Assembly: GCA_028709045.1 (NCBI GenBank)
Contig: JAQVXR010000001.1
Span: 31,221-95,220, forward strand
DNA: 64,000 bases
Direction: 5' to 3'
Source of the DNA: Desulfitobacteriaceae bacterium
Lineage (GTDB): Bacteria > Bacillota > Dehalobacteriia > Dehalobacteriales > Dehalobacteriaceae
In this document: positions 9,862-59,811 of the stretch, piece after piece
Position numbering within the stretch: position 1 is the stretch's first letter
Layout of the letters: the number at the start of each line of letters is the position of its first letter
Notes under the pieces: generated by a model
Databases searched by the model: none
What the model was told of the DNA's origin: nothing
Seen by the model: only the letters and a program-made list of their open reading frames with translations
Position numbers and translations under genes: made by a program

Positions 9862-9889
9862 AAAAGCCTGCAAATTAGTAGGCTTTTTT
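9862..9889 (+). terminator. Intrinsic terminator after ilvN
   Basis: aaaagcct pairs with aggctttt, followed by a T-run ending at 9889. Confidence 0.7.
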
Positions 9890-9890
9890 A

Positions 9891-10030
9891 TACTATCAGA
9901 TAAGTTTATATAGGTTGATACTAAGTGAACTAAGGCTTCTCCCAAAGGACTGGAATCTTGCGCACTGTAAAAAGCATAATACTAGAAATTCTGGTGTGCC
10001 TGCATTAAAGACTTGAAGAAGCCTAGTTTC
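9891..10030 (+). repeat. Intergenic repeat family, copy A (long form, degenerate 3' hairpin)
   Basis: tactatcag..taagtttatatagg..ttgata..taagtgaactaaggcttc + 59-nt insert (9940-9998) + cctgca..agacttgaagaagcctag. Aligns with copies at 25681, 37948, 44529 and 59577. Confidence 0.7.
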
Positions 10031-10261
10031 CTTTATAATACGGTTAACATGGGTTGCAGTAAGTTTGTGCTTTTGCAGGAGTTTGCTTTTCAATGTCGAA
10101 TTATACTTTGTTTAACTAAAAAACAAATATTTATGTTCTATATTGAACTAACTGGTTTTTCTTTACATTTTCAGGCCGCTTTTTTTGGTAGTCGATTTGG
10201 TCTTTCAATACCAGAAAGGGCCGGCCTTATTTTTTGGTAGTATGCACTTGGAGGGTAGAAA

Positions 10262-25432: not shown

Positions 25433-25605
25433 TACGGATGAAGGTAATAGGAGAAGACTTTGGTCGCCGAAGGGGCAAGAAAATACTCTGCCGGGTATTT
25501 TTGAATCTCTCAGGTTTATGACTGTTACCGGACGAACCTCTGGAGAGACTTGGTTGGTTCCAGGCGCCGAAGGATTTATTCTCTCAGGCAAAAGGACAGG
25601 GGAAG
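25433..25605 (+). promoter_or_regulatory. Tandem glycine riboswitch
   Basis: Aptamer 1: ggagaagac..gtcgccgaaggggcaa..aatctctcagg. Aptamer 2: ctctggagagac..caggcgccgaagga..ctctcaggcaaaaggacag. Matches conserved glycine-riboswitch cores and lies upstream of an alanine/glycine symporter. Confidence 0.85.
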
Positions 25606-25645
25606 GCACGCCGGTTGTAAGACCGGATGTTTTCATTTGTTTAGA

Positions 25646-25677
25646 AACCAAGTTCAACTATCTGAGCTTGGTTTTTT
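25646..25677 (+). terminator. Terminator-like hairpin, probable riboswitch expression platform
   Basis: aaccaag (25646-52) pairs with cttggtt (25667-73), followed by a T-run. Confidence 0.6.
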
Positions 25678-25680
25678 GTA

Positions 25681-25803
25681 TTGTCACTATAAGTGCAACG
25701 AGGGTTTCCCCTAAAGGACTGGAATTTCTACGCATTGTAAAAAAGCACAATGCTAGAAATTCTGACGCGCCTGCGTGGAATTCGGTGCAAACCAAGTTTT
25801 CTT
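25681..25803 (+). repeat. Intergenic repeat family, copy B (5'-truncated long form, degenerate 3' hairpin)
   Basis: ttgtcactataagtgcaacgagggtttc + 61-nt insert (25709-25769) with the best-preserved hairpin + cctgcgtggaattcggtgcaaaccaagtttt. Confidence 0.65.
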
Positions 25804-25905
25804 TAGCTTATCAAGGCCGGGGCTGTGCATTTGAAGGAGGGGTTTTCGGAATACTGATCTTTCCGTTTGATGAACCTAATCAAAAATTAACAGGAGGAAT
25901 GACAT

Positions 25906-27255
25906 GTGACCTTTATTGAATTAGTAACAAAAATAGATGATATTGTTTGGGGAGTTCCTTTGTTGGTGCTGTTGGTAGGAACAGGATTATTCTTAACCCT
26001 CAGATTACGGTTTTTATCTTTTCGCAAGCTTCCCCTTGCGTTAAAAATGGTCTTTACCCGTTCAGAAAGCAAGGATGGAGCAGGGGACATTACTCATTTT
26101 CAGGCTTTGATGACTGCTCTTGCCGCAACTATTGGTACAGGTAATATTGTTGGAGTGGCCACCGCAGTTTTTGCCGGCGGACCTGGTGCTGTATTTTGGA
26201 TGTGGGTAACTGCACTGGTCGGGATGGCTACCAAATATGGAGAAGCTGTACTAGCCGTAAAGTATCGAATTGTTGATGATAAAGGGGAAATGGCAGGCGG
26301 CCCCATGTATTATTTGGAGCGGGGCTTAAAGATGAAGTGGCTCGGTGTTTTGTTTGCTGTTTTCGGTGCGATCGCCGCTTTTGGGATTGGCAATATGGTA
26401 CAGTCCAATTCAGTAGCCGGGGCACTTAATGATACATTTAATTTGCCATTGCCTGCAGCCGGGATCATTCTTGCTGTCTGTGTCGGGGTGGTAACTTTAG
26501 GCGGGATCAAAAGCATCGGCCGGGTTTCCGAATGGGTGGTGCCGATAATGGCCGTTATATATGTAATTGGCGCTTTAGTTATTCTGCTGATTAATATAAA
26601 AGCAATTCCGGCGGCAATTGTTTTAATCGTTGAGTCTGCTTTTACCGGACATGCTGCTTTAGGCGGATTTCTTGGTGCTACAATGAAGAAGGCTATTCAA
26701 ATGGGTGTTGCACGGGGGGTTTTTTCCAATGAATCCGGTCTGGGTAGTGCGCCTATTGCTGCGGCAGCAGCGAAAACTGATTACCCGGTGAGGCAGGCAC
26801 TGGTCTCCATGACCGGAACATTCTTAGATACAATTATTGTTTGTTCCATGACCGGTTTAGTGCTTGTGATTACAGGAGCTTGGGCTTCCGGAAAAGAGGG
26901 CGTAGAAATGACCAGACTGGCCTTTGGCTCCGGGCTGCCAGGTAATTGGGGAGGTTTTATTGTTTCTTTCGGAATAATATTCTTTGCCTATTCAACTATT
27001 TTGGGCTGGAGTTACTACGGAGAAAAGTGCATGGAATATCTTTTTGGCTTAAAATTAATTTTACCTTATCGAATTCTTTTTGTTATTATTGTATTTATCG
27101 GCAGTACCATGAAGCTGGATCTGGTTTGGAAAATTGCCGACATTATGAATGGGCTGATGGCAGTTCCCAACTTAATCGGGCTGCTAGGTTTAAGCGGAGT
27201 CATTGTGGCGGAAACCAAATTGTTTTTTGATAAGATTTCCCAAGAAAATAATTAG
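25906..27255 (+). CDS. Alanine/glycine:cation symporter (AGCS family)
   Basis: AGCS-like N-terminus ([19 protein letters not shown]), GAVFWMW; GTG start 8 nt after AGGAGG. Confidence 0.88.
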
Positions 27256-37916: not shown

Positions 37917-37947
37917 TAAAAAAGGCACCTGGCAGGTGCTTTTTTTA
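37917..37947 (+). terminator. Intrinsic terminator after the ThiF-family gene
   Basis: gcacct-ggc-aggtgc flanked by an A-run and seven Ts. Confidence 0.75.
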
Positions 37948-38040
37948 TACTATCAAAAAGTATAAGTTTAAGGTTGATAGTATAAGTGCAACTAAGGCTT
38001 CCGCCTGCGTCTGAGACTTGGCACAAGCCAAGTTTTTTTT
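37948..38040 (+). repeat. Intergenic repeat family, copy C (short form, best preserved)
   Basis: Perfect 9-bp stem tactatcaa/ttgatagta with a 17-nt loop, then taagtgcaactaaggcttc-cg-cctgcgtctgag, then acttggc-acaa-gccaagt and eight Ts. Confidence 0.75.
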
Positions 38041-38563
38041 ATTCGATCGTTCCGAAATTGTCTAAAGGCCAGATGCGGAATATAGCCTTTCCTTTGATAT
38101 CTTCTACGGGAATGAAGGAAACATCGGCACTTCGGCTGTCATGACTGTTCCCTCTGTTGTCCCCCATAACAAAAACTGTATCCGGGGGAACCAGGGTATC
38201 AATATTCCCGTCAGTATAGTCTTCATTAATATATGGTTCTTCCAAGGCTTCTCCATTACGATAAACAACGCCGTCCTCAATAGAAATATGGTCTCCCGCT
38301 AAAGCAATCGTTCTTTTTACGTAATAAGATCCGGCCCGGTCAGGTGCATCAAGTATTACAATATCCCCACGGTCAGGTTCGCTTAAGGCATAAACAATTC
38401 TGTTGGTAAAGAGCCTGTCTTGATTATGCAAGGTGGGATACATGGACTGTCCGTACACCTCGGTGATCTGAAAGAAATAAGTTCTAATTATCAGTGCAAT
38501 AACAACTGCTAAAAGAAAACTCTTCAAATATTCCCAGAGGACACTACTAATTGATTTTTTCAC
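38039..38563 (-). CDS. lepB: Signal peptidase I
   Basis: S26 motifs GQSMYPTL, KR, GDNRGNSHDSR; N-terminal TM anchor. Confidence 0.88.
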   Translation of the reverse strand: MKKSISSVLWEYLKSFLLAVVIALIIRTYFFQITEVYGQSMYPTLHNQDRLFTNRIVYALSEPDRGDIVILDAPDRAGSYYVKRTIALAGDHISIEDGVVYRNGEALEEPYINEDYTDGNIDTLVPPDTVFVMGDNRGNSHDSRSADVSFIPVEDIKGKAIFRIWPLDNFGTIE

Positions 38564-44496: not shown

Positions 44497-44527
44497 TCCG
44501 GGGCGCGTTTTTACCCCGGATTTTTTC
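44497..44527 (+). terminator. Intrinsic terminator after nhaA
   Basis: tccgggg pairs with ccccgga, followed by six Ts. Confidence 0.8.
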
Positions 44528-44528
44528 A

Positions 44529-44621
44529 TACTACCAGGAACTAAGTTAATATAGGTTGGTATGATAAGTGTAACTAAGGCTTTTGTCTGCGTCAAAGACT
44601 TTGACGCAAGCCCAGTTTTTT
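44529..44621 (+). repeat. Intergenic repeat family, copy D (short form, alternative 3' hairpin)
   Basis: tactaccagg..taagttaatatagg..ttggtatga..taagtgtaactaaggctt, then perfect 10-bp hairpin tgcgtcaaag-a-ctttgacgca, then agcccag and a T-run. Confidence 0.7.
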
Positions 44622-44714
44622 ATATATGGCTGCATATTTATTGGAGCGATCAACTGAAATAATTTACCAACTCATCCTTTTGGGATATAATAAAAGGGGT
44701 GGAGGGAATAACAA

Positions 44715-59576: not shown

Positions 59577-59723
59577 TACTATTCGGAAAATAAGTTTATA
59601 TAGGGCGATAGGATAAGTGCAACTAAGGCTTCCCCTAAAGGACTGGAATTCGATTATAAAAAACACAATGCTAGAAATTCTAGCGCGCCTGCGACTAAGA
59701 CTTGGTGCAAGCCAAGTTTTTTT
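59577..59723 (+). repeat. Intergenic repeat family, copy E (long form, intact 3' hairpin)
   Basis: tactattcgg..ataagtttatatagg..gcgatagga..taagtgcaactaaggcttc + 55-nt insert (59633-59687) + cctgcgactaag + acttgg-tgcaag-ccaagt and a T-run. Confidence 0.75.
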
Positions 59724-59811
59724 ATTTTCTAAGGCATTATGATATAATTGGAAAAAGATTAGGCTCGTTAAATAGTAATTTATATTTGGTGAAATACTGG
59801 AGGCGGAAAAA

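Follow-up and report, generated by a model that had tools for sequence, protein, structure and literature searches.

The window analysed here is a 64,000-nucleotide stretch of DNA from the 2.8-Mb draft genome of a Desulfitobacteriaceae bacterium. It contains five copies (A to E) of a short dispersed repeat, all on the plus strand. The interval singled out in the initial annotation, 44529-44575, belongs to copy D and covers its 5' part; this copy begins directly behind the terminator of an nhaA-like gene. The copies, together with the individual parts of copy D, are as follows.

9889..10036, plus strand: copy A, long form; 5' arm 9889-9899, 3' arm shortened to TTGATAC, 9915-9921
25681..25806, plus strand: copy B, long form, without the 5' arm
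37946..38042, plus strand: copy C, short form; 3' hairpin 38013-38036
44498..44526, plus strand: hairpin and T-run that terminate the upstream nhaA-like gene; copy D starts directly after it
~44527-44625, plus strand: copy D as a whole
44527..44537, plus strand: 5' arm of copy D, CATACTACCAG; partner 44556-44566; TACCAG is 44532-44537
44538..44555, plus strand: hairpin loop of copy D, GAACTAAGTTAATATAGG
44556..44566, plus strand: 3' arm of copy D, TTGGTATGATA; G 44559 pairs with C 44534
44567..44579, plus strand: unpaired linker of copy D, AGTGTAACTAAGG; family consensus AGTGCAACTAAGG
44578..44625, plus strand: 3' module of copy D; helix of GGCTTTTGTC (44578-44587) with GACGCAAGCC (44603-44612), T-rich tail to 44625
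59577..59725, plus strand: copy E, long form with inner module; 5' arm 59577-59586, 3' arm 59605-59615

The repeat is non-coding and 95–155 nt long, and the hairpin discussed below is its 5' module. The order of parts is 5' hairpin, unpaired linker AAGTGCAACTAAGG (the most conserved stretch of the family), an optional inner hairpin module of ~55–58 nt, 3' hairpin and tail GTTTTCTTTAT. The inner module is present in the long forms A, B and E, and internal deletions that keep both ends are common among the copies. Terminal inverted repeats are absent, i.e., the left end, (T)ACTATCAG, is not an inverted copy of the right end GTTTTCTTTAT. The hairpins at the two ends are dissimilar as well (5' stem ACTATCA/TGATAGT, 3' stem GGCTTCCGCC/GGCGCAAGCC), the right one lying ~10–13 nt from the end of the element. 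In the 3' module, a T-tract follows a hairpin with a GNRA loop, and in copy C a terminator scan flagged this hairpin (38013-38036) as terminator-like. RNAalifold analysis of 31 diverse full-length short forms selected a long-range 3' helix, GGCTTcCGCC / GGCGcAAGCC, which is 94% paired with double changes at 5 pairs. The local 3' hairpin CTTGGC/GCCAAG is 90% paired with zero double changes. The long-range helix (37996-38029 in copy C, 44578-44612 in copy D) and the local terminator-like hairpin are mutually exclusive. The inner module is located exactly at the internal mismatch of the long-range helix. One locus of this genome (C2:12503-12661) is a long form whose orthologue in the sister genome G001 (L008) is a short form without the inner module, so the module was gained or lost within a resident copy.

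The initial annotation described a perfect 9-bp stem in copy C, one complementary double change in each of copies D and E, and a loop core conserved in sequence, all of which are present in the window. The stem of copy C extends further, to a perfect 11 bp formed by the 5' arm TATACTATCAA (37946-37956) and TTGATAGTATA (37974-37984). Copy D reads TACCAG (44532-44537) and TTGGTA (44556-44561), with C-G in place of the T-A pair of copy C. Copy E reads CTAT(T)CG (59579-59585) and CGATAG (from 59606), with G-C for A-T and one bulged T. The loop core TAAGTT.A..AGG is common to the window copies. The 3' arm of copy D carries an additional GT-to-TG swap that breaks two outer pairs, and its 5' stem retains 7 Watson-Crick pairs and one G.T of 11; the stem of copy E has an A.G mismatch besides the bulge. 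Folded as single-stranded DNA, copy C reaches -5.9 kcal/mol (z = -4.8), with 0 of 200 shuffles folding equally well. Copy D (-2.1 kcal/mol, z +0.6) and copies E and A (~0 kcal/mol) fold no better than their shuffles. A rough estimate of the joint probability of two complementary doubles among the few arm changes of D and E is ~0.01–0.04, and the window evidence alone is therefore only suggestive.

The C-G pair of copy D is also found in the related copy C66:28657, and the orthologue of copy D in the sister genome (L032, with the same flanks) has C.A at this position, so the pair probably came from a source variant and did not arise by fixation at the site. Different pairs are broken in copy D and in L032. 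The G-C pair of copy E can be derived from A-T by way of G.T, a state that is frequent in related copies. Inheritance from source variants, or chance, is the best reading of the two compensated window pairs, in preference to repair at the locus. Most of the window copies are in decay.

For the family as a whole we compared a non-redundant set of 176 5' modules, drawn from this genome, four relatives and metagenome loci. The subfamilies differ in both arms of the stem. The arms of sf1 are TATACTATCA / TGATAGTATA (core ACTATCA/TGATAGT), and those of sf3 are TATACTTTCA / TGAAAGTATA (core ACTTTCA/TGAAAGT), which amounts to a change of A-T to T-A at pair 7. In H3, TATACTTGTCA / TGACAAGTATA (core ACTTGTCA/TGACAAGT), a whole G-C pair is inserted in both arms. 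The arms of sf4, GTCTATCAGAAAG / CTTTCTGATAGAT, form a 13-bp stem with an 8-nt loop; an extended-stem haplotype, CTATCAGAAAG/CTTTCTGATAG, reaches 13–15 bp, and one lineage has a perfect 15-bp stem, TATACTATCAGAAAG / CTTTCTGATAGTATA. All subfamily consensus sequences fold well as single-stranded DNA (z -3.1 to -10.3).

Covariation, which had been suggested from the window copies, is present in this larger alignment. For 150 copies aligned with MAFFT without structural guidance, 78.2% of cells are paired compared to 70.6% after shuffling, and the covariation score is 0.199 compared to 0.105 for shuffled alignments and 0.02–0.07 when the partners are slid; neither observed value is reached in any of 500 shuffles. 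Subfamily sf4 was analysed separately because MAFFT misaligned its 3' arm; there, 95.8% of cells are paired and double changes occur at 5 pairs compared to 1.2 expected (2 of 500 shuffles reach this number). Differences from the subfamily consensus affect 1–13% of cells at stem sites and 9–19% at loop sites, and across the family the loop is the most variable part of the 5' module, with a length of 5 to ~37 nt. Because the arms covary between subfamilies and the stems vary less than the loops, we conclude that the fold is maintained and not the sequence alone; the large alignment makes the hairpin statistically solid. A dimeric protein site on double-stranded DNA is ruled out by the arm differences between subfamilies together with the variable spacing of the arms.

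Complementary changes could also arise by mutation alone. An inverted repeat in DNA with a short spacer is a known substrate of quasi-palindrome correction, in which template switching copies one arm from the other and so reverts or mirrors changes in a single step. The arms of the repeat have this arrangement, and the process would yield paired changes, even the paired insertion seen in H3, without any function of the fold; the lack of a clear strand asymmetry agrees with it. It leaves unexplained, however, why the hairpin persists in at least 16 families with such different loop lengths, why mismatches stay uncorrected in most resident copies, and why the 5' arm keeps a partner even where the partner has changed. 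We regard a purely mutational origin of the paired changes as improbable.

The change of partner is seen in sf2, the subfamily that produced a burst of copies and is the most prolific one. Its long stem has 3 mismatches, and it folds instead through a nearer partner (TATACT with AGTATA, 7 bp), which repeats the distal arm in direct orientation (GTATAAGT is found twice). Consequently, the distal stem is not strictly required, and what is conserved is not one fixed pairing but a hairpin beginning at the extreme 5' end.

Individual resident copies present a different picture from the subfamily consensus sequences. Single changes at consensus Watson-Crick pairs within subfamilies comprise 43 G.T, 28 A.C and 38 other mismatches. 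The compensated cells number 20, of which 12 represent the difference between sf1 and sf3, leaving 8; with that difference excluded, 109 single uncompensated changes stand against 8 compensated ones. In this genome, approximately 8 of ~28 hairpin-bearing copies keep at least 9.5 of 11 pairs. The initial annotation had proposed selection on a fold rather than neutral decay, and this proposal holds in part. It is borne out for the family by the covarying arms of the subfamilies and the lower variability of stems relative to loops, and it does not extend to upkeep of the window copies, given the marginal or absent predicted stability of D, E and A and the preponderance of single over double changes. 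The related expectation that stem-breaking changes would be few in otherwise intact copies does not hold, with 66 stem-breaking and 43 wobble singles against the 8 compensated cells within subfamilies.

The repeat is abundant and widely distributed. A blastn search located ~43 loci in this genome, four relatives from the same family have at least 24–32 scored matches per genome, and a scan anchored in the linker, i.e., outside the hairpin, recovered at least 120 metagenome stretches. In these metagenome loci at least 45 copies are within 0–3 differences of one consensus, nearly all of them from the metagenome sample Ga0255336, which indicates a recent burst. In a census of an even sample of the phylum, 40 of 401 genomes carried the repeat, with 73–92% identity; they represent 30 of 277 genera and at least 16 families. 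The repeat also has matches in Desulfitobacterium species and several metagenome-assembled genomes of Bacillota. No Rfam 15 family matches the repeat at the gathering cut-off or at E <= 10 apart from weak terminator-like noise, the plasmid and phage collections contain no match to it, and the literature searched makes no mention of it. A different dispersed repeat of ~85–110 nt, unrelated to this one, is found in the sister genome beside one of the main element's copies (L021:1625-1735) and has copies in this genome at C21:10039-10123, C142:2526-2601 and C299:696-778.

The sites occupied by the repeat have a characteristic composition. The 5' flanks are T-rich from -10 to -3, with T at position -4 in 192 of 199 distinct flanks, and the T-rich stretch is preceded by G+C-rich bases. 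Moreover, 80% of the 5' flanks fold at <= -8 kcal/mol, compared to 30% of random 45-mers. The element thus lies directly behind terminator-like hairpins with their T-runs. The orientation of a copy is always that of the upstream T-run, which is usually the T-run of an intrinsic terminator. The 5' flank most often ends in TTTAT, and the right end of the element itself is ...TTTCTTTAT. The element's own 3' end imitates the insertion target. Tandem arrays with a 94-nt period are found in metagenome loci, where the junction reads ...GTTTTCTTTAT followed directly by ACTAACAG. The nested insertion with junctions ...CGCTTT/CCTACG... and ...CTTTAT/CGCAAG has no target-site duplication, and the 5' flank variants TGT, AGT and CAT have no mirror at the 3' end. 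A clean pair of empty and filled orthologous sites was not recovered from the sister genome, where the apparently empty sites are eroded copies, and the boundaries of the element are for this reason not fixed by that comparison.

Several observations concern individual sites. A related 79-nt element (CCTACGATGCAAGTAG...GGCCAAGTCTTCTTTAT) is nested in copies of the main family (L046, L075, L086 and L062 of metagenome Ga0255336), where it follows ...CGCTTT; it forms tandem arrays of 2–3 units and has the linker ATAAGGCGACTAAGGCC and the tail in common with the main family. The terminator that precedes copy C (37925-37946) has an A-run ahead and a T-run behind (aaaaaaGGCACCTGGCAGGTGCttttttt) and is probably bidirectional, since the scan flagged it on the minus strand. 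Copy B follows a tandem glycine riboswitch (25438-25602) and its terminator and precedes the downstream gene (the whole arrangement spanning 25438-25906); the two glycine riboswitch aptamers are the only Rfam matches in the window. The 3' hairpin of copy B is weakened by a C.A mismatch in TTCGGT..ACCAAG. The missing 5' arm and the weak 3' hairpin would be expected if the leader could not tolerate a strong terminator.

The position behind terminators raises the question of whether the hairpin acts as RNA at each locus. In such a scheme, read-through from the upstream gene would transcribe the element, whose 5' hairpin and 3' terminator could serve as a back-up terminator, protect the 3' end or act as a small RNA, and selection would keep the fold. 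The uniform orientation relative to the upstream T-run, and hence to the upstream transcript, is in keeping with such a role, and so are the terminator-like 3' module, a stem variability 1.5–9 times below that of the loop, the level of identity retained across the carrier families, and the wobble-compatible nature of both stem changes between the orthologues C2 and L008. G.T singles also exceed A.C singles, with 43 compared to 28 cells in the 5' stem (p = 0.10) and 85 compared to 49 in the 3' stem, where many cells repeat one subfamily state. However, the excess is not significant when repeated states are counted once (22 compared to 16 distinct events in the 5' stem, p = 0.42), and we therefore dropped these counts as a pointer to RNA or single-stranded DNA as the folded strand. 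The copies moreover reside behind terminators, where transcription should be low, they have no promoter in common, the repeat matches no Rfam family, and many residents have broken or deleted hairpins. The tandem and nested copies and the near-identical burst are signs of selfish spread. On this evidence, we consider a function as RNA at each locus unlikely.

We lean towards the explanation that the hairpin, being the structural module at the 5' side of a small non-autonomous repeat, is needed as a folded single strand while the repeat is copied, and that resident copies decay afterwards. The hairpin would be read as a folded single-stranded nucleic acid during copying to a new site, presumably as top-strand DNA exposed at replication and less likely as a transcript. 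Only source copies able to fold would leave descendants, and such a filter would leave subfamilies distinguished by complementary changes between their arms. Once inserted, a copy would be under little or no constraint and would decay, the state in which D, E and A may be. Multiplication within genomes is evident from the ~43 loci, the tandem arrays, the precise nested insertions and the near-identical burst. The points that weigh against the explanation include the following: 1) the better conservation of stems than of loops could also reflect constraint at each locus, 2) neither a parent insertion sequence nor, in five carriers, a Y1_Tnp gene was found, and 3) the most prolific subfamily, sf2, has a mismatched long stem.

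PATEs and REP/RAYT systems are strand-specific hairpin elements without inverted ends or target duplication; their single-stranded DNA is handled by Y1 HUH enzymes, and they are biased with respect to replication. The repeat could be a miniature element of the IS200/IS605 type (a PATE) or resemble REP, with a Y1 HUH transposase, such as the RAYT-like proteins of this genome, acting in trans and binding the single-stranded hairpin. It resembles IS200/IS605 PATEs in the absence of inverted ends and target duplication, in its subterminal hairpins, including the short distance of the right one from the end, and in insertion on one strand 3' of a short T-rich motif. Orientation tracks replication in the complete genome G005, where it flips at dnaA (3.98 Mb) and again near 1.15–1.2 Mb; 28 of 30 copies point with replication, so the copies mark both replichores. 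In G002, just 16 of 25 copies do so. A replication-strand bias may fit targeting of the lagging-strand template and fits equally well copies that follow gene orientation; being strong in G005 but weak in G002, it was dropped as decisive evidence.

The genes that could provide such a transposase were searched for directly. This genome has two Y1_Tnp genes, one of which exceeds the NCBIfam cut-off for REP-associated tyrosine transposase, and this RAYT-like protein is enriched among carriers of the repeat (24 of 40 compared to 102 of 361 other genomes; odds ratio 3.8, p = 1e-4, with no correction for phylogeny). On the other hand, this protein is absent from 16 of 40 carriers, the burst genome included, eight RAYT-like genes (those of this genome and their homologues) all lack a copy of the repeat in the 1.5 kb around them, and no match to Y1_Tnp was found in 5 of 16 carrier genomes checked, including the complete genome G287. 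Copies in genomes free of Y1_Tnp could be relics. The RAYT-like gene C232:162-935 (minus strand) has on either side, in inverted orientation, a different repeat (C232:94-1016), GGGGACGGGGTTGTTGACAAC / GTCnnGGGGACGGGGTTGTTGACAAC, which has 16 copies in this genome (13 other sites besides C232:94-1016); this gene and its own repeat look like a separate REP/RAYT-type system. The RAYT-like Y1 protein was rejected as the mobiliser of our repeat because it has no adjacent copies, because the C232 gene has its own repeat and because of the carriers that lack it. An IS605 element that adjoins a copy in G164 was likewise rejected as the parent, its ends being unrelated to those of the repeat. No autonomous parent, i.e., left and right ends 0.5–3 kb apart, was found in the complete genomes G002 and G005. 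This genome contains no coding partner, the loci with only a left or only a right end adjoin ordinary genes, and TnpB is represented by just an 18-residue fragment at a contig end.

The repeat therefore differs from IS200/IS605 PATEs in that its two hairpins are unlike (one TnpA could bind both if they were alike), in that no autonomous insertion sequence with the same ends was found in this genome, G002 or G005, and in that a Y1 transposase is not present everywhere the element occurs. It differs from REP/REPIN-RAYT systems in that no RAYT gene is flanked by it. We consider descent from or mobilisation by either kind of system unlikely. Among enzymes that might copy the repeat, an HUH-type single-strand nuclease is our first candidate, although we give it a low probability.

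Classical MITEs, which derive from DDE transposons, are similarly short, non-coding and present in many copies, but the repeat has neither their terminal inverted repeats nor their target-site duplication. Defining features of all three kinds of element, the classical MITE, REP/RAYT and the IS200/IS605 derivative, are thus lacking. Insertion immediately behind the hairpin and T-run of an intrinsic terminator, in a single orientation, is known from class C group II introns. The repeat lands in the same manner, but at 95–155 nt it has no ribozyme domains, no reverse transcriptase and no Rfam intron match, and its small size rules out such an intron.

The closest analogues are bcr1-bcr3 and SPRITE. 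The bcr1-bcr3 repeats of the Bacillus cereus group are structured non-coding multi-copy repeats of 100–400 bp, with mobility linked to TTTAT at the ends and no known transposase; bcr1 is reported to be restricted to the B. cereus group, with copies reported on plasmids. Our repeat is likewise a small structured multi-copy repeat of Bacillota, with the end TTTCTTTAT and a 5' flank that mostly ends in TTTAT. It differs from bcr1 in that it spans at least 16 families in another part of the phylum, has no blastn match in the plasmid collection and shows no clear duplication of TTTAT at nested insertions. SPRITE is a small AT-rich repeat with a terminator-like hairpin and a T-tract, enriched downstream of genes, with no established cognate insertion sequence or target duplication; it consists of one 18-bp duplex with AAAA/TTTT ends and occurs only in S. 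pneumoniae and S. mitis (PMC3049150). In contrast, our repeat has two separate hairpins and a conserved linker, abuts a pre-existing terminator, makes tandem and nested arrays and is found phylum-wide.

A live alternative for the copying step is template switching that involves no transposase and takes place at sites with a hairpin and a T-run. The hairpins would act as stall sites and the T-run with TTTAT would provide microhomology, which would account for the missing inverted ends, the missing target duplication, the targeting of the element's own 3' end and the absence of a dedicated enzyme. Taken further, the repeat could belong to an undescribed, phylum-wide class of terminator-homing element that uses folded single-stranded hairpins at both ends together with T-run microhomology, and that moves either by hairpin-stalled template switching with no dedicated transposase or by an enzyme type new to mobile DNA. 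We put this forward tentatively, as a possibility that we would not expect to be correct; if it were, a spare terminator would be added at every landing site.

Small structured repeats are common, REP, BOX, bcr1 and SPRITE being examples, and the movement of most of them is unexplained. The family described here is an unusually clean case that is present in about one genome in ten in the sampled phylum, with a defined landing position after the T-runs of terminators, a single orientation, targeting of its own 3' end, and covarying arms. These features give an experimental handle, i.e., a stem broken and then restored, on how such elements copy themselves. Recognising the family also matters for annotation since it prevents copies from being called small RNAs, parts of riboswitches or real terminators; one copy in the window lies inside a glycine riboswitch leader. 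The hairpin, which may act as RNA or as single-stranded DNA, is a maintained structural feature of the family, although most of its copies in the window are decaying.
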